From contig CAWEHR010000012.1 of the NCBI GenBank assembly GCA_963808975.1, positions 23,139 to 87,138 on the forward strand: 64,000 nucleotides of DNA, given 5' to 3'. The notes under the pieces are model-generated. The model made no database searches and was not told where the DNA came from. It was given only the letters and a program-made list of their open reading frames with translations. The DNA is from an uncultured Gammaproteobacteria bacterium (GTDB lineage: Bacteria; Pseudomonadota; Gammaproteobacteria; Pseudomonadales; JAHEGP01). This document shows, piece after piece, positions 47,165 to 62,258 of the stretch. The position numbers and the translations under genes are program-made. The first letter of the stretch is position 1, and each line of letters begins with the position of its first letter.

Positions 47165-48394
47165 ATGGCATTGATCGTCCAAAAATTCGGTGGCACCTCG
47201 GTGGCGAACGTCGAGCGCATTGAAGCGGTCGCGGAACGCGTACTCGCCTGTCGGGAGCGGGGTGAGCAACTGGTGGTGGTGGTGTCGGCGATGAGCGGCG
47301 AAACCAACCGCCTGATTGAGCTGGCCCATAGTATCCAGCCCGCGCCGGACCCCCGGGAATTCGATGTGCTGGTTTCTACCGGCGAGCAGGTCACTATCGC
47401 GCTGTTGTGCATGGCCCTGATCAAACGCGGTTGCCCCGCGCGCTCCTATACCGGGGCGCAGGTTAGGATATTGACCGACAACGCTTACAACAAGGCTCGC
47501 ATCAAGGAAATCGACGGTGGCGCCCTGCGCAGCGACCTCGACGCGGGCCACGTTGTGGTGGTGGCCGGTTTCCAGGGGATGGACGCCAAAGGCAATATCA
47601 CCACCCTGGGGCGGGGGGGCTCCGACACCACCGCCGTGGCGCTGGCGGCGGCGCTGGAGGCCGATGAATGCCAGATCTTTACTGACGTCGATGGCGTTTA
47701 CACCACCGACCCGCGGGTAGTGAATGGCGCCAGGCGTCTGGACCGCATTACCTTCGAAGAAATGCTGGAGATGGCGAGCCTGGGCTCCAAGGTATTGCAA
47801 ATCCGGGCCGTGGAGTTTGCCGGCAAGTACAATGTGCCGCTGCGGGTGTTGTCCAGCTTCGAGGACGGCCCCGGCACCCTGATAACCCGGGAGGAACCGG
47901 ACCAGATGGAAGCACCCACTATTGCGGGCATCGCTTTTAATCGTGATGAAGCCAAACTCACCGTTGTCGGTGTGCCCGATACCCCCGGCGTGGCCTATAA
48001 AATCCTCGGACCTATTGGGGAGGCCAATGTCGAAGTCGACGTCATCGTACAAAACGTTGGTGCCGACGGCACTACCGACTTCACTTTCACCGTGCACCGT
48101 AACGAAATGGCCAAGGCCGAGGCAATTCTGAATCGTACCGCCGTTGAACTCGGCGCCAGGCAGGTGATCAGCGACGACAAGATATGCAAGGTATCGTTGG
48201 TGGGGGTCGGCATGCGGTCCCATGCGGGTGTCGCCGCCAAAATGTTCAAGGCGCTGGCCGAGAGCAACATCAATATCCAAATGATCACCACCTCCGAAAT
48301 CAAGATTTCAGTGGTGATTGCCGAGAAATTCATCGAACTCGCGGTGCGTACGCTGCATTCTGCTTTTGATCTCGAGGAGCCGGCAGCAAAATAG
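47165..48394 (+). CDS. lysC: Aspartate kinase
   Basis: QKFGGTSV, LGRGGSD, two ACT domains. Confidence 0.96.
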   Translation: MALIVQKFGGTSVANVERIEAVAERVLACRERGEQLVVVVSAMSGETNRLIELAHSIQPAPDPREFDVLVSTGEQVTIALLCMALIKRGCPARSYTGAQVRILTDNAYNKARIKEIDGGALRSDLDAGHVVVVAGFQGMDAKGNITTLGRGGSDTTAVALAAALEADECQIFTDVDGVYTTDPRVVNGARRLDRITFEEMLEMASLGSKVLQIRAVEFAGKYNVPLRVLSSFEDGPGTLITREEPDQMEAPTIAGIAFNRDEAKLTVVGVPDTPGVAYKILGPIGEANVEVDVIVQNVGADGTTDFTFTVHRNEMAKAEAILNRTAVELGARQVISDDKICKVSLVGVGMRSHAGVAAKMFKALAESNINIQMITTSEIKISVVIAEKFIELAVRTLHSAFDLEEPAAK

Positions 48395-48593
48395 ACGGCA
48401 ATAGATGATTCAGATTCACCTATAATTGCCGCTTTGCTTTTTCGAGGAGAGCCTGGATGTCCCTCGAATCATATCGGCCCGCAGGAGCGGCCGGTTAAAA
48501 CAGAACTTCCACAGCAGATGGAAGTCATCATGATAAGTTCTTCCCCTGAGGAACAGTGGGGCAGGAGGGATAGCCAGTAACAGGAGAATTTGG

Positions 48594-48785
48594 ATGCTAA
48601 TTCTGACGCGTCGCATTGGTGAGACGTTGATGGTGGGTGATGATGTGTCGATCACCGTTTTGGGGGTCAAGGGCAACCAGGTGCGCCTGGGGGTTAACGC
48701 ACCCCGCGATGTCGCGGTTCATCGGGAGGAGATTTACCAGCGCATACAGGACGAAAAGACCGTTGGTCCGGATGAAGAAAGTTAG
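48594..48785 (+). CDS. csrA: Carbon storage regulator CsrA
   Basis: [12 protein letters not shown]...[10 protein letters not shown]; canonical alaS-lysC-csrA-tRNA-Ser context. Confidence 0.98.
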
Positions 48786-48828
48786 CCAGTTCAAAATTGG
48801 CAACTGCGCTTCAGTTAGCGTCCTGTTG

Positions 48829-48846
48829 TGGTATCATCTCGCCCGC
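48829..48846 (+). promoter_or_regulatory. Putative stable-RNA promoter (extended -10 plus GC-rich discriminator)
   Basis: TGgTATCAT followed by CTCGCCCGC just upstream of the array; -35 is weak. Confidence 0.55.
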
Positions 48847-48853
48847 TAAAAAC

Positions 48854-49679
48854 GGCGGCCCCGAAGGGGTGAGGAGCGTGCGACGAATCAGGCGCTCCCC
48901 GGTTGATCAGGAAGGCTCGATGCCTGAGTGATCAACGAACGATGAATACAAAGTAAAGTTGTAAAGAGTTTGGTGAGGTGGCCGAGTGGCTGAGCCGGAG
49001 CTTGCGCAGCAAGCGTAGACAACGCCCGCAGGGCGGCCCCGAAGGGGTGAGGAGCGTGCGACGAATCAGGCGCTCCCCGGTTGATCAGGAAGGCTGGATG
49101 CCTGAGTGATCAACGAGCAGTAAGACAAAGTAAAGTTGTAAAGAGTTTGGTGAGGTGGCCGAGTGGCTGAGCCGGAGCTTGCGCAGCAAGCGTAGACAAC
49201 GCCCGCAGGGCGGCCCCGAAGGGGTGAGGAGCGTGCGACGAATCAGGCGCTCCCCGGTTGATCAGGAAGGCTGGATGCCTGAGTGATCAACGAGCAGTAA
49301 GACAAAGTAAAGTTGTAAAGAGTTTGGTGAGGTGGCCGAGTGGCTGAGCCGGAGCTTGCGCAGCAAGCGTAGACAACGCCCGTAGGGCGGCCCCGAAGGG
49401 GTGAGGAGCGTGCGACGAATCAGGCGCTCCCCGGTTGATCAGGAAGGCTGGATGCCTGAGTGATCAACGAGCAGTAAGACAAAGTAAAGTTGTAAAGAGT
49501 TTGGTGAGGTGGCCGAGTGGCTGAGCCGGAGCTTGCGCAGCAAGCGTAGACAACGCCCGTAGGGCGGCCCCGAAGGGGTGAGGAGCGTGCGACGAATCAG
49601 GCGCTCCCCGGTTGATCAGGAAGGCTGGATGCCTGAGTGATCAACGAGCAGTAAGACAAAGTAAAGTTGTAAAGAGTTT
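48854..49679 (+). repeat. 177-bp tandem array of interrupted tRNA-Ser 5' fragments (partial unit plus 4 full units)
   Basis: GGTGAGGTGGCCGAGTGGCTGA recurs at 48972, 49149, 49326, 49503 and 49680 (the true tRNA), period exactly 177. Confidence 0.97.
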
Positions 49680-49770
49680 GGTGAGGTGGCCGAGTGGCTG
49701 AAGGCGCTCCCCTGCTAAGGGAGTATAGGCTAATCCCCTATCGAGGGTTCGAATCCCTCCCTCACCGCCA
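49680..49770 (+). tRNA. tRNA-Ser (anticodon GCT)
   Basis: Acceptor GGTGAGG/CCTCACC plus GCCA; anticodon arm CTCCC-CTGCTAA-GGGAG; long variable arm; GGTTCGAATCC. Confidence 0.98.
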
Positions 49771-49810
49771 TCATCAAAAAGCCCGGCCCTGTGTCGGGTT
49801 TTTTGATGAT
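49770..49810. terminator. Bidirectional intrinsic terminator after tRNA-Ser
   Basis: ATCATCAAAAAGCCCGGC...GTCGGGTTTTTTGATGAT. Confidence 0.85.
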
Positions 49811-50011
49811 CGGTTACGGGATAGGGTGAGAAGCCTCGCGGTTCGACAAAATGCGGGAGCATTTTGCAACGGGCCCGCAGCGCTTCCCGGCCCTGCTCAC
49901 CCAGGACGGACCGGTCGATTGAGATGTCCGAGCGACAAGGCGATCGGTACGCGGCTATGAGCAGCCTTCCGTTGTATACTCTCATTGCTATTTAACAATA
50001 AGGGGGTCGTT

Positions 50012-50260
50012 ATGGATTTTTTCATCGGTCAAATATGCACGTTCCCATGGAGCTGGGCTCCAAGGGGTTGGGCGAAGTGTGACGGACAGCTGCTGCAAAT
50101 CGCCGAGAACCAAGCACTATTCGCGCTCATCGGAATCGAATTCGGAGGCGACGGCCGCACGACCTTCGCCCTTCCCAAGATGCCACCTGTGAAGACGGAT
50201 AATGGCGGCGATCTGGACTACTTCGTCAACCTAGAAGGTATTTTTCCCTCGCGCTCCTGA
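50012..50260 (+). CDS. Stand-alone phage tail collar domain protein
   Basis: FIGQI..F...APRGWAKCDGQLL.I..NQALFALIG..FGGDGRTTFALP...GIFPSR. Confidence 0.88.
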   Translation: MDFFIGQICTFPWSWAPRGWAKCDGQLLQIAENQALFALIGIEFGGDGRTTFALPKMPPVKTDNGGDLDYFVNLEGIFPSRS

Positions 50261-50761
50261 TGGGCCTGGCCGGAGCGAACCTCCGGCGTTGCTTCGTTCC
50301 CGGCGGAGCCTTCCCACAGCCGGCCAGTAACCATCGAAGGCATGGCTGATGGTCGGCACCATCGAACCACCCAGCAAAACCTCCATACCACGAAAGTTTA
50401 CTTCGGTGTGTAAACCGAAATATTCATCCGCCAAGTTTCTTCCACCCACGATAGCAACACGGTTGTCGATCACCAGTGATCCAACCGTGTCCATTCCCCA
50501 GAGGAATGTCTGGATTTCGATGCTCTGGGTAGCGCTATCAATGGTCTTCAAGCGCCAGTCCAAGGCATTGGTACCGCGATTTAGCAGCACAAACCAGTCC
50601 TCATCCAGCTCGGGTTCCAACGACTGCCAGAAGGTATCATCGAATGCCGCGGGCGTATTTTCATCGGGCAGTAGCACAGGTTCGAGAGCCGTGCAGCCTG
50701 ATATGAGTAAAGCCAGAATGAGCGTCGGTGTCGACTTGGCAAAAGGTCTAATGGTTAGCAT
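50231..50761 (-). pseudogene. Phospholipase D (ClsC/YmdC-like) lipoprotein remnant with internal deletion
   Basis: Lipobox ISGC; SIEIQTFLW..D..G joined directly to IDNRVAIVGGRNLADEYFG, so the HxK of the first HKD motif is missing; truncated. Confidence 0.75.
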
Positions 50762-50814
50762 CAAATGGCTACCTGCGATGGTCATCATGAAATGTTGTGG
50801 TCGGGTGATTCTAG

Positions 50815-50974
50815 GAGCCTGTCGGGCTTAGGATTATTCTACTGCGCCGATGGGATGGCGGTCCAAATGTCCGCGATATTTCGTTGCTTAGCCCCACTAT
50901 GCGCCTCAATCTCGCAAAAATTTGACATCGCCCTCCCACTCGGCTCGCTACCAACACCTAAGTCCGACAGGCTC
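50815..50974. mobile_element. 160-bp MITE with 18-bp terminal inverted repeats, flanked by CTAG
   Basis: GAGCCTGTCGGGCTTAGG ... CCTAAGTCCGACAGGCTC (17/18); CTAG at 50811-50814 and 50975-50978. Confidence 0.85.
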
Positions 50975-51146
50975 CTAGCAAAGAGTATGATGAACTAGCC
51001 GTCCTCCATAGCGAACGAACGCTTTGGAGAATTGCCGGCATAAAAAAGCCCGGCGCGTTGCCCAGGCTCCTATTTCGGCTTGGCGCCAGTTGCAGCTCCT
51101 GGATATTCTTGGGTCCTGCATCAAGCTGTCAACTTCATTCTCCCGA

Positions 51147-59904: not shown

Positions 59905-60252
59905 CAGGATTCAGTCCAGTTTCCCAGCTGTCCGCGGGCGAGCCCAATGGTCCGCCGAGGTTTACATCATGGGTCCTGCCGTCGTTGACAGTGCCCAACC
60001 TGGGCGGCAGGGCACCGTGATCGAGCCCGACGTGGCGTTTTGCGGCGCCTCACCGTCACCATCGAAAAGCCCGACACAAGCAGCGGCATTTCTGATTCCC
60101 GGTCAGTCGAGGAAAGCACTGGGACGCCGGTCACAGTCTGAAAAGCCGTTACTCGCACTAGTGCCTTTCACGATCAATACTTGATCACACTAATCTTTCC
60201 GCTGTGCTGGCAGCGCCTTCTGCTTGAGGGGATATGCACGGCTCGGTACATA

Positions 60253-60308
60253 ACCAGCGGCACTGCACCAGCGGTACGACACCAGCGGTACGACACCAGC
60301 GGTACTAC
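60253..60308 (+). repeat. Four copies of a 14-bp tandem repeat (ACCAGCGGTACGAC consensus)
   Basis: Units at 60253, 60267, 60281 and 60295. Confidence 0.9.
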
Positions 60309-60341
60309 ACCATCTGCAATACACCATCGAGGATCAGGACA

Positions 60342-62258
60342 ATGCCACTTCGGCTCGTATTCACCATTATTGCAACCTTGCTGTGCCTGGGTATGACCGC
60401 AGCGCGCGCAGCAGACAGTGACGCCCTGCTGCGTTTGTCGTTCGATGAGGGTAGCGGCACAACCGCCAGCGACAGCAGCGGGGCGGGTAACAATGGCAAG
60501 CTGGTCGGCGGGCCGGTTTTTCGCTCGCAAACGGCTGACGGCAGCGCCCATGCCCTGAACTTTGACGGCACGGACGACTACGTAGACCTGGGTTCCTTCG
60601 ACGTGGCGGGGTCGGGCCTGACCATGGCGGCCTGGTTCAAGGCAGACAGTTTTCCCGGCCAATACCAGGACCCGCGCATTATCTCCAAGGCCTCGGGTAC
60701 GGCGGCCAACGATCATGTTTTCATGCTTGGCACGATCAAGTCAGGCAGCGACACGGTGCTGCGCGCCCGGGTACGCGTCAACGGTGCTACCACCACCCTG
60801 GTCGCAAGCAGCGGCAAGCTGAAAACCGGTGTATGGCAGCACGCTGCGGCGACCTACGACGGCAGTACCCTGCGCCTGTACCTGAATGGCGTTGAAGTCG
60901 GCCGGCAGCGGTTGTCCGGCAAGATCGATGTCGACCCGAACCTGAAGGTGGCCGTGGGTAGCCAGCCCGGGGGCCGCACCCGGTTCTTCGACGGTATGCT
61001 GGATGATGTGCAGGTATTGAAGCGGGCAAAAAGCCCCGCCGAGATTTTGGCCATGACCGTTCCGCCCGCTCCGGAGGCGGTTGCTTTCGCGCCAATGTCA
61101 GATAGCGTTATGCACCTGGCATTTGATGAGGGTAGCGGCGCAAGCGCCAGCGACAGCAGCGGGGCGGGTAACAATGGCAAGCTGGTCGGCGGGCCGGTTT
61201 TCCGCTCGCAAACGGCTGACGGCAGCGCCTATGCCCTGAGCTTTGACGGCACGGACGACTACGTAGACCTGGGTTCCTTCGACGTGGCGGGTTCGGGCCT
61301 GACCATGGCGGCCTGGTTCAAGGCAGACAGTTTTCCAGGCAAATACCAGGATCCGCGCATTATCTCCAAGGCCGCGGGTACGGCGGCCAACGATCATGTT
61401 TTCATGCTCGGCACGATCAAGTCAGGCAGCGACACCGTGCTGCGCGCCCGGGTACGCGTCAACGGTGCTACCACCACCCTGGTTGCAAGCAGCGGCAAGT
61501 TGAGAACCGGTGTATGGCAGCACGCTGCGGCGACCTACGACGGCAGTAGCCTGCGCCTGTACCTGAATGGCGTTGAAGTCGGCAGGCAGCGGTTGTCGGG
61601 CAAGATTGATGTCGACCCGAACCTGAAGGTGGCCGTGGGTAGCCAGCCCGGGGGCCGCACCCGGTTCTTCGACGGTATGCTGGATGATGTGCAGGTATTG
61701 AAGCGGGCAATCAGCCCGTCTGAACTGCAAGCGCTGAGCACCATCAACAATAAACAGGAATTGGTCGCGGATACGTCAGTGAATAGCCAGACGGCAGTGC
61801 CGGCTCCTGCGCCGGCTACTACCCAGCCTGTTGATACTAATGAGTCGGTAAGCGTCACTGAGCCGGTAGTCGCCAAAGAGACAACAACAACGACTGAGCA
61901 AAAGGCGACTGAGACAGGAACAGCCACCGAGACCGCACCTGTTACTGAAACAGTAACCGTTACTGCACCGGCACAGGTGACAGCCCCGGCGTTAAAGAGC
62001 GTCAAGCTCAGATGGCAGTTGCCCCTTGACCGTGCAGACGGCAGCTTTCTGGCGCTGAGCGAAATCAGCGGATTCGAAATCTATTATTCAGGCGAGAATA
62101 GCGCAAAGTCTGAGGCAATTCGTATCGATGGCAACCAGACTGACAACTATGTGATTCAAGACCTGCCAGCGGATGTTTATCACATATCCATGGTTACGAT
62201 TGACAACAAGGATGTTCCCAGCGAGCTGTCAGAGATTGTCAGCGTTGATCTCAGGTAA
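60342..62258 (+). CDS. Secreted protein: two LamG-like domains, Thr/Glu-rich linker, FN3-like C-terminus
   Basis: Signal peptide; WQHAAATYDG..LRLYLNG...FDGMLDDV twice; LRWQLP...EISGFEIYY. Confidence 0.88.
   Translation: MPLRLVFTIIATLLCLGMTAARAADSDALLRLSFDEGSGTTASDSSGAGNNGKLVGGPVFRSQTADGSAHALNFDGTDDYVDLGSFDVAGSGLTMAAWFKADSFPGQYQDPRIISKASGTAANDHVFMLGTIKSGSDTVLRARVRVNGATTTLVASSGKLKTGVWQHAAATYDGSTLRLYLNGVEVGRQRLSGKIDVDPNLKVAVGSQPGGRTRFFDGMLDDVQVLKRAKSPAEILAMTVPPAPEAVAFAPMSDSVMHLAFDEGSGASASDSSGAGNNGKLVGGPVFRSQTADGSAYALSFDGTDDYVDLGSFDVAGSGLTMAAWFKADSFPGKYQDPRIISKAAGTAANDHVFMLGTIKSGSDTVLRARVRVNGATTTLVASSGKLRTGVWQHAAATYDGSSLRLYLNGVEVGRQRLSGKIDVDPNLKVAVGSQPGGRTRFFDGMLDDVQVLKRAISPSELQALSTINNKQELVADTSVNSQTAVPAPAPATTQPVDTNESVSVTEPVVAKETTTTTEQKATETGTATETAPVTETVTVTAPAQVTAPALKSVKLRWQLPLDRADGSFLALSEISGFEIYYSGENSAKSEAIRIDGNQTDNYVIQDLPADVYHISMVTIDNKDVPSELSEIVSVDLR
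60444..61710 (+). repeat. Near-identical ~586-bp intragenic direct repeat (60444-61029 and 61125-61710)
   Basis: Offset 681 bp (227 codons); only scattered substitutions. Confidence 0.93.

Follow-up and report, generated by a model that had tools for sequence, protein, structure and literature searches.

The tRNA-Ser(GCU) gene of an uncultured gammaproteobacterium (Pseudomonadales; GenBank assembly GCA_963808975.1) is preceded by a 177-bp tandem repeat whose units contain interrupted pieces of the 5′ part of the same tRNA. We have analysed this array within a stretch of 64,000 nucleotides (contig CAWEHR010000012.1, positions 23,139 to 87,138 of the forward strand), referred to here as the window; coordinates are those of the window unless another locus is named. 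In our judgment the array is probably a tandemly amplified repeat of the RtT family, in which the architecture of that family is inverted to the 5′ end and the D-loop of the tRNA, with a course of transcription, processing and by-product function that we propose below. Each unit would be a truncated pseudo-copy of tRNA-Ser(GCU) nt 1-33 that carries a core of about 74 nt in its D-loop, and behind it would come a hairpin and the native leader in copy.

One array was detected by Tandem Repeats Finder, at 48854-49701 (period 177, 4.8 copies, 98% matches, 0 indels). It consists of four full 177-bp units and one partial unit, with a putative csrA-proximal promoter on one side and tRNA-Ser(GCU) on the other (Table 1). 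Every full unit begins with tRNA nt 1-22 (22/22 identical to the gene), continues with a 74-nt insert and with tRNA nt 23-33 (11/11), and ends in 70 nt that comprise a 35-nt hairpin and the same A-rich leader as precedes the real tRNA. Unit 1 equals unit 2 and unit 3 equals unit 4, the two pairs being separated by one C/T difference. The partial unit, which is the most promoter-proximal, is also the most diverged (95% identity to unit positions 61-177); its core is matched at 48840-48888 by our covariance model R1 (44 bits) and by a profile hidden Markov model (HMM; E 5e-8). These comparisons bear out the unit anatomy, the 177-bp period and the unit starts of the initial annotation, as well as its remark on the divergence of the partial unit. 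Its contrast with the tyrT/rtT repeats of E. coli, which lie downstream of their tRNAs, also stands: the units lie upstream and copy the tRNA 5′ end as nt 1-22 and 23-33.

The repeat is real and not an artefact of assembly, as arrays are present in two other genomes of the genus: G003 has five units, and a contig of G004 ends inside its array. The copy number given above is the value of one assembly. No copy of the unit occurs elsewhere in the 4.25-Mb genome, in which three tRNA-Ser genes were found (TGA, GGA and GCT), one of them for the GCU isoacceptor.

The 74-nt insert is, on sequence comparison, a homologue of the conserved core of RtT RNA (RF00391), that is, of the tRNA-linked repeats (TLRs). 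In BLAST, the central 55 nt of the unit (nt 41-95) match the repeats of genome G010 with E 2.9e-8. These belong to a 187-bp array downstream of tRNA-Ser(GGA), and score 52.1, 50.0 and 49.4 bits with RF00391, the gathering score of which is 45 bits. In the alignment, the insert lies opposite the core stretch of the three G010 repeats, roughly RtT model positions 47-113. An HMM made from 24 downstream-type cores of other families, with no sequence from the genus of the window and none of the 5′ type, matched the four full units and the partial one with E 2.4e-10 to 5.3e-8 (the full units alone, 2e-10 to 7e-10); the rest of the 64-kb window gave nothing better than E 5.9. The model R1, built without any E. 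coli sequence, matches all five annotated copies of the RtT small RNA (sRNA) after E. coli tyrT-tyrV (E 1.6e-5 to 4.6e-5). BLAST of a 5′-type unit from G030, a genome outside the genus, retrieved 4131 E. coli records, individually weak (E 0.3), and six of the six matches listed fall on a feature annotated as 'RtT sRNA'; the unit of the window had no match in E. coli genomes. The core features of RtT are all found in the insert: two variable hairpins, a CCC-GAA-GGG hairpin, a GA-flanked hairpin and a CGA(A/G)UA end. Its location is also that of a TLR, with 4.8 copies (TLRs have 1-5) in a tRNA transcription unit, between the putative promoter and tRNA-Ser.

The Rfam model of RtT itself misses most relatives outside the enterics. 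When 20 loci were compared with RF00391, one RtT match reached the gathering score (a downstream repeat at locus L052, without an R1 match), and three R1 core matches had a sub-threshold RtT match at E<=0.01. The positive controls were recovered (49-52 bits for G010 and 54.6 bits for L052, a locus of genome G100). An Rfam search with the unit gave no named family and only chance-level matches. With the unit alone as query, one Rfam family could be aligned, AaHKsRNA22 of Aggregatibacter (RF02902), in the CCCC-GAA-GGGG region; with 16.6 bits against a gathering score of 39.8 the unit is no member, and AaHKsRNA22 may be another relative of the TLRs. A weak match of RF04351, a plastid 3′UTR element, to 49730-49767 on the minus strand is antisense to the tRNA T-arm, is below threshold and recurs in every relative; it is likely an artefact of a tRNA-derived model.

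The units and the classical repeats differ in the position of the core within the tRNA copy. The T-arm of E. coli tRNA-Tyr reads ..AAGGTTCGA then ATCCTTCC.., and each RtT reads ..AAGGTTCGA, core, ATCCTTCCCCCACCACCA. In the canonical repeats of E. coli and relatives, the core stands between ..GGTTCGA on one side and the T-loop 3′ half with the tRNA 3′ end on the other, so that the canonical repeat looks like the 3′ third of a tRNA with the core in its T-loop. In the window, the core comes after the D-loop sequence ..GGCTGA and before the 3′ D-stem strand and the 5′ anticodon-stem strand (nt 23-33), and is therefore in the D-loop. Both positions are occupied together at three loci (L069, L072 and L075), where the D-loop and the T-loop of a near-complete tRNA-Ser copy each hold an insert. 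Their identity to the tRNA is 19/21, 21/21 and 22/22 over nt 1-21/22, and 50/51, 51/52 and 51/51 over nt 22/23-72/73, respectively. The second insert follows directly after GGTTCGA and is succeeded by the 3′ strand of the T-stem and a degenerate acceptor strand. R1 matched all the D-loop cores of these pseudo-tRNAs (E 4e-15 to 2e-4). The T-loop inserts are of a diverged subtype, a remnant of which is present in the window at 49807-49883. A reading that accommodates these forms is that tRNA-linked repeats are decayed units of a tRNA copy plus a loop insert, the unit of the window being a copy cut after nt 33 that has kept its D-loop insert. The portion of tRNA retained varies with the lineage (nt 23-33, 23-50 or 23-73).

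The four hairpins of the core covary. We compared 18 cores of the 5′ type (17 distinct) over 18 proposed pairs, and 87.3% of the cells were paired, against 75.0 +/- 1.3 in shuffles and 31-51% in slid controls. Changes on both sides were seen in 10 of the 18 pairs, and none of 500 shuffles reached the covariation score; the sequences are related, so that these numbers overstate their independence. In the last hairpin, a tandem G.A/A.G of GCU-type cores is replaced by Watson-Crick pairs in GGA-type cores, consistent with the tandem-GA motif to which a passage of bioRxiv 10.1101/2020.02.04.933952 refers in RtT. Of 41 cores, 31 give a better fold on the sense strand than on the antisense strand, with a mean advantage of 2.3 kcal/mol, among sequences that are again related, and the strand test leans weakly to the sense strand. 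Three structural candidates were discarded. The UGA..GAA flanks of the last hairpin resemble a hammerhead ribozyme by eye, but most relatives lack the A9 that such a ribozyme requires, and there was no match to a ribozyme family. In the minimum free energy (MFE) fold of the window unit, the core pairs with the piece of tRNA nt 23-33, but by eye this pairing is not kept in relatives. A helix between D-loop and core, proposed by RNAalifold for the 5′-type alignment, was judged spurious.

Several observations weigh against assigning the array to the RtT family or against an RNA role for it. No unit gives an RF00391 match at E<=10, whether 47500-51000, the whole of its own genome or the unit alone is searched. 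The units have tRNA nt 1-22 in place of the RtT 5′ segment (GGAUGAGAA..GGUUCGA, which pairs with the tRNA-derived 3′ tail), and they do not have the 18-19-bp copy of the tRNA 3′ end that defines the TLRs. The cores that trained the HMM were retrieved with a model that included window sequences, and that test is not fully independent. The T-loop inserts are weakly recognised, R1 matching one of three with E 0.06. The hairpin covariation would fit an RNA or a single-stranded DNA structure alike, and G-U pairs are no commoner on the sense strand. Three estuary metatranscriptome or metagenome runs, covering <=5% of the sampled words, gave no contig on the array, a result that is uninformative and no proof of silence; the contigs they did give lay on the tRNA (mostly from other organisms) and on a 5′ piece of csrA. 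Finally, TLRs are described, in the part of PMC8144298 cited here, as having no known function, and an earlier rtT phenotype as retracted.

The upstream layout is not confined to the window. In BLAST against 60 related genomes, three of the six further members of the genus, G003, G004 and G006, proved to contain the unit (4/7 with the window's own). The five units of G003 measure 174-184 bp and are 84-89% identical to those of the window, and they come with a different partial first unit. In G006 one unit stands before tRNA-Ser(GGA), with the same insert followed by nt 24-50 of that tRNA, and the gene upstream is not csrA. In G001 the order csrA-promoter-tRNA is kept, with an unrelated leader of ~145 nt and no unit. 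In G030, csrA and tRNA-Ser(GCU) are accompanied by at least one clear unit. A pattern scan with one genome per species (tRNA-Ser D-loop, core start and CCCGAAGGG; its scope is tRNA-Ser) returned 18 stretches, of which 14 are real and four are chance (no nearby tRNA; three inside long open reading frames, ORFs). Three of the real ones are the loci of G003, G004 and G006. The other carriers are Porticoccus, two Porticoccaceae, Pseudohalioglobus sediminis NY5, Haliea sp. E1-2-M8, a Halieaceae bacterium, Kineobactrum sediminis F02, Litoribrevibacter euphylliae KCTC 52438, Corallincola platygyrae JCM 18796, and metagenome-assembled genomes of the Pseudomonadales and the Enterobacteriaceae. In all, the 5′-type layout is seen upstream of tRNA-Ser GCU, GGA or CGA in 15 genomes of several gammaproteobacterial families. 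The search for cognate upstream units at other tRNAs, suggested by the initial annotation, thus turned up tRNA-Ser GGA and CGA besides GCU.

In a sample of 151 genomes of the order, R1 gave a match at E<=0.01 in 37, and 28 of its loci outside the genus of the window were fetched for their layout. Seventeen lie downstream of a tRNA or transfer-messenger RNA (tmRNA) gene on the same strand (Ser, Ala, Arg, Asp, Glu, Pro, tmRNA), two are of the upstream type, and nine have no tRNA on the same strand within the fetched stretch. Two genomes of the order have RtT-like cores directly downstream of tmRNA genes (L038 1048-1574 and L050 1501-2020), and because of these the RtT-like repeat family appears to reach beyond tRNA and rRNA operons. 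The genome of the window has six core matches. One of them, on contig C1 (~1197400-1197699) outside the window, is an RtT-like core in canonical layout (HMM E 4e-4); it is flanked on both sides by a ..GCCGCCTCCACCA tail that resembles the 3′ end of tmRNA and is cut by the contig end, and ARAGORN reported no tmRNA there. Both layouts meet at one gene in G100 (L052 1196-1573), where a tRNA-Ser(GGA) has a 5′-type unit upstream and a canonical RtT of 54.6 bits downstream.

Such a distribution raises the question of whether the core moves. In a rival explanation the core of ~70-80 nt is a past or present mobile element that inserts after ..GA in a D- or T-loop of tRNA genes and persists in duplicated copies alone; the arrays would then be neutral debris that recombination has amplified, and their RNA would have no role. 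The equivalent positions of the insertions in the two loops and the presence of cores after so many stable-RNA genes are in line with this, as is the finding, in one genus, of the same core subtype at tRNA-Ser(GCU) (window, G003 and G004) and at tRNA-Ser(GGA) (G006), each with the cognate tRNA piece. The patchiness among close relatives, including the empty orthologous site of G001, points the same way. Other observations speak against it. A scan of 16 ORFs between 43165 and 63751 gave neither a transposase nor an integrase. Target-site duplications and terminal inverted repeats are absent, BLAST of the unit against phages and plasmids had no match, and an exact 18-mer of the core had 0 matches in viral contigs. 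Six core matches in the genome are few for an active element. The core motifs are, moreover, strongly conserved from E. coli to the lineage of the window, and with the hairpin covariation this suggests selection beyond mobility. We regard the purely selfish origin as quite unlikely. The same scans found nothing of an att array made by an integrase or of an island, nor anything to sustain the integrase-related role suggested by the initial annotation. A bolder statement can be made in which mobility and function are combined: the core is a discrete loop-targeting insertion module, mobile as DNA or RNA, that colonised the D- and T-loops of duplicated tRNA and tmRNA genes across the Gammaproteobacteria; all TLRs are decayed units of a tRNA copy plus this insert, and the upstream arrays make the leader of an essential tRNA an obligatory, high-output source of a structured RNA with a cellular partner of its own. 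We hold this version to be doubtful.

Amplification of a repeat of the RtT family, the explanation that we prefer, would have left its trace in the similarity of the units to one another and to the gene. Within the window the units are 99-100% alike, against the 84-89% identity to those of G003. Being far more alike within a genome than between species, they would have undergone concerted evolution or recent amplification. The tRNA-derived pieces follow the live gene as well: despite differences in tRNA acceptor and D-loop from one genome to the next, nt 1-22 of the unit are 22/22 identical to the cognate tRNA in 14 of the 15 genomes, and the exception is one Porticoccaceae unit with 20/22. 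At the second base after the core, a G-to-C difference is common to nine of the 15 units and suggests that the insert includes this base.

The initial annotation had suggested a possible function for the tRNA pieces: as decoys that divert tRNA-targeting nucleases or integrases, or in the tuning of maturation, where GGUGAGG may pair with CCUCACC at the 3′ end of the true tRNA. The precursor offers several copies of GGUGAGG against one CCUCACC, and the identity of the 5′ piece to the live tRNA would fit such a role. Gene conversion explains the identity equally well. In two of the five units of G003 (units 4 and 5; L007 2048-2395), a deletion between the near-repeats GCCGAG and GCTGAG has removed 8 nt from the D-loop piece. 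The full 22-nt piece is therefore not indispensable, and this speaks against a role for which all of it would be needed. Diversion of an anticodon nuclease is made unlikely by the absence of the anticodon from the window units and by the different portions of tRNA retained in different lineages, and that of an integrase by the lack of an integrase or island boundary among the 16 ORFs scanned. Where the tRNA starts with GGAGAG, the core still has a GCGAGG motif of its own, so that the second GGUGAGG in the window is a coincidence. A decoy or tuning role thus seems to us scarcely credible.

The proposal of an RNA by-product depends on the array being transcribed. The putative promoter listed in Table 1 was placed upstream of the array because its extended -10 motif is conserved in relatives with and without an array: TG-n-TATCAT occurs at the equivalent place in G003, G004, the array-free G001, Haliea and Kineobactrum, and in the last two it directly precedes the start of the pseudo-tRNA. 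The stable-RNA promoter of the initial annotation is thereby supported by the conserved motif and the GC-rich stretch, but a scan of the locus with a strict sigma-70 consensus found no promoter. The absence of an internal terminator, also claimed there, holds: no terminator-like site was seen between one at 48341-48356, just inside the 3′ end of the aspartokinase ORF, and one at 49785, where a terminator-like hairpin follows the tRNA. Beyond it lies a truncated repeat of the canonical type, recognised by local alignment of 49773-49883 to a complete downstream repeat of G006; G006 and G030 both have a complete downstream repeat at this site, including the repeated tRNA 3′ end and a terminator. 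The tRNA-Ser(GCU) gene of the window is thus flanked by relatives of the repeat on both sides.

Table 1. Features of the tRNA-Ser(GCU) locus in the window.
Feature	Position	Strand	Basis or remark
csrA, upstream neighbour	48594..48785	+	Pfam CsrA, E 5e-26
Putative promoter: extended -10 TG-n-TATCAT (48829-48837) and GC-rich discriminator	48829..48846	+	read from sequence
Partial first unit: 3′ half of RtT-like core, tRNA nt 23-33 piece, hairpin, A-rich leader	48854..48971	+	
Four full 177-bp units	48972..49679	+	starts 48972, 49149, 49326, 49503
RtT-like four-hairpin cores of units 1-4	48994..49067, 49171-49244, 49348-49421, 49525-49598	+	unit 1: R1 99.5 bits
Lineage-specific hairpin, unit 1 (present in every unit)	49079..49113	+	MFE fold
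Intact tRNA-Ser(GCU)	49680..49770	+	ARAGORN and Rfam
Intrinsic-terminator-like hairpin and T run, after the tRNA	49785..49806	+	
Remnant of canonical downstream (T-loop-type) repeat: GAGAAGCC..GGTTCGA piece and first hairpins, then truncated	49807..49883	+	

The nearness of csrA brings a further rival explanation into view. The gene order alaS-lysC (aspartokinase)-csrA-tRNA-Ser is conserved in G001, G003, G004 and G030, and in the window ~70 bp, in which no terminator is found, separate the stop codon of csrA from the start of the array. In principle, units made from a growth-rate-controlled promoter could sequester CsrA, or Hfq, in the way of the CsrB-type RNAs or of RrA, RrB and RrF, the E. 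coli sRNAs that bind CsrA and Hfq in vitro according to passages of PMC8144298. Each unit of the window has a GGA in the loop of its lineage-specific hairpin, and many relatives have GGAG in the loop of the second core hairpin. These sites are not, however, a stable property of the family. A unit has 4 GGA where shuffles have 6.25 +/- 1.95, so that the motif is not enriched; the partial first unit and G003 lack the loop GGA, and the second-hairpin loop has no GGA in the genus of the window. In G003 the stem of the lineage-specific hairpin is kept with altered sequence, and the loop is TCAAT or CCAAT; a loop GGA is found in the window genome only. The association with csrA is loose too: G001 has the order csrA-tRNA-Ser without an array, and 5′-type units also occur at tRNA-Ser(GGA), where the one checked (G006) is not behind csrA. 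No Rfam match to CsrB or Rsm RNAs was obtained, and in the part of PMC8144298 drawn upon here, the 19 TLRs of tRNA operons in E. coli are given a score of < 0.01 as CsrA binders. A CsrA- or Hfq-titrating array is in our view very improbable.

Protein coding was also considered. Units 1 and 2 each contain a 43-aa arginine-rich ORF (48978-49109 and 49155-49286) that starts from a GTG in the tRNA piece; it is unlikely to be a gene because the C-to-T change in units 3 and 4 makes an in-frame stop (TAG). The tyrT repeats of E. coli contain a 'protamine-like' ORF, tpr. The arginine-rich ORF is reminiscent of it; the name tpr appears in a passage of bioRxiv 10.1101/2024.07.17.603846. On its other side, the tRNA locus adjoins a 91-aa ORF with a phage tail collar domain (E 6e-24; 49985-50260), and farther on, at 60234-62258, there is a 674-aa Laminin_G_3 protein that resembles a tail fibre weakly.

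For an RtT-type repeat in this position we propose the following course. The units would be transcribed together with the tRNA, because the single-copy tRNA gene is preceded by a repeat unit, and its promoter must lie either upstream of the array or in every unit. A precursor of ~960 nt, from about 48845 to about 49806, would undergo RNase P cleavage where the true tRNA begins and RNase E-type cleavage within the A/U-rich leaders. Cleavage at both kinds of site is expected from tRNA maturation. Structured RNAs of ~177 nt, about four to five per tRNA, would thereby be released. Unequal recombination between units would shift their number, and gene conversion would keep the tRNA-derived pieces identical to the live gene. 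If the released core RNA is active, it may be a protein-binding by-product that reports the activity of a stable-RNA promoter, as proposed for the TLRs of the E. coli rrn operons.

How far the array resembles known systems can now be stated. Compared with RtT RNA, the 178-bp repeats after E. coli tyrT-tyrV, it has a homologous core of ~70 nt, including the CCCGAAGGG hairpin, the tandem-GA-flanked hairpin and the ..CGA(A/G)TA end. As in RtT, a tandem array with a period near 180 bp lies in a tRNA transcription unit, and part of a tRNA is copied with the core in one of its loops. Unlike RtT, the array is upstream, and its flanks are nt 1-22 and 23-33 at the D-loop, whereas those of RtT are the T-arm and the 3′ end. 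Its transcription would be independent of read-through, because no terminator lies between the putative promoter and the repeat. Passages of PMC8144298 count 22 TLR copies at 10 loci in E. coli K-12, including those of RrA, RrB and RrF in rrn operons, name as their hallmark a 3′-terminal stretch of 18-19 bp that exactly copies the 3′ end of the stable-RNA gene before them, and report that they are transcribed and processed, three rrn TLRs binding Hfq and CsrA in vitro. The window array likewise lies in a stable-RNA operon and copies part of a neighbouring stable-RNA gene, in a number within the 1-5 copies per locus of the co-transcribed and processed E. coli TLRs (PMC8144298, in part). In contrast to them, it has 22 + 11 nt identical to the 5′ part of the gene downstream.

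Two other systems bear comparison. Archaeal non-canonical tRNA introns are found in functional genes and are spliced at bulge-helix-bulge motifs. Their positions near 21/22 and 58/59 recall the loop insertions seen here. The host copies here are, however, truncated or have a degenerate 3′ acceptor strand, and for that reason no tRNA can result from them. The 3′ETS-leuZ RNA is a short, unstructured sponge for base-pairing sRNAs. Like it, a spacer RNA made in a fixed ratio with a tRNA could act in trans; there is no homology between the two, and the array shows nothing of sRNA pairing. Functional by-products of pre-tRNA processing of the 3′ETS-leuZ type are named in a passage of PMC8144298.

Upstream or D-loop tRNA-linked repeats were not found described in the literature that we searched, which was chiefly open-access and did not include the older primary papers, and the architecture appears to be new. 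The array as a whole is less novel than the initial annotation, which called it undescribed, had supposed: its core is homologous to that of RtT and the TLRs, although no unit is reached by RF00391, and what remains new is the upstream D-loop arrangement.

Repeats linked to tRNA genes have been known since 1978. The array of the window, placed as it is in the leader of a single-copy tRNA gene, would be a variant that cannot avoid being transcribed, with no need of read-through. The pseudo-tRNAs with inserts in both the D-loop and the T-loop would be intermediate forms, and they suggest what a TLR is: a tRNA copy with a conserved four-hairpin insert. Cultured carriers of the upstream type exist in Haliea, Kineobactrum, Pseudohalioglobus, Litoribrevibacter and Corallincola.

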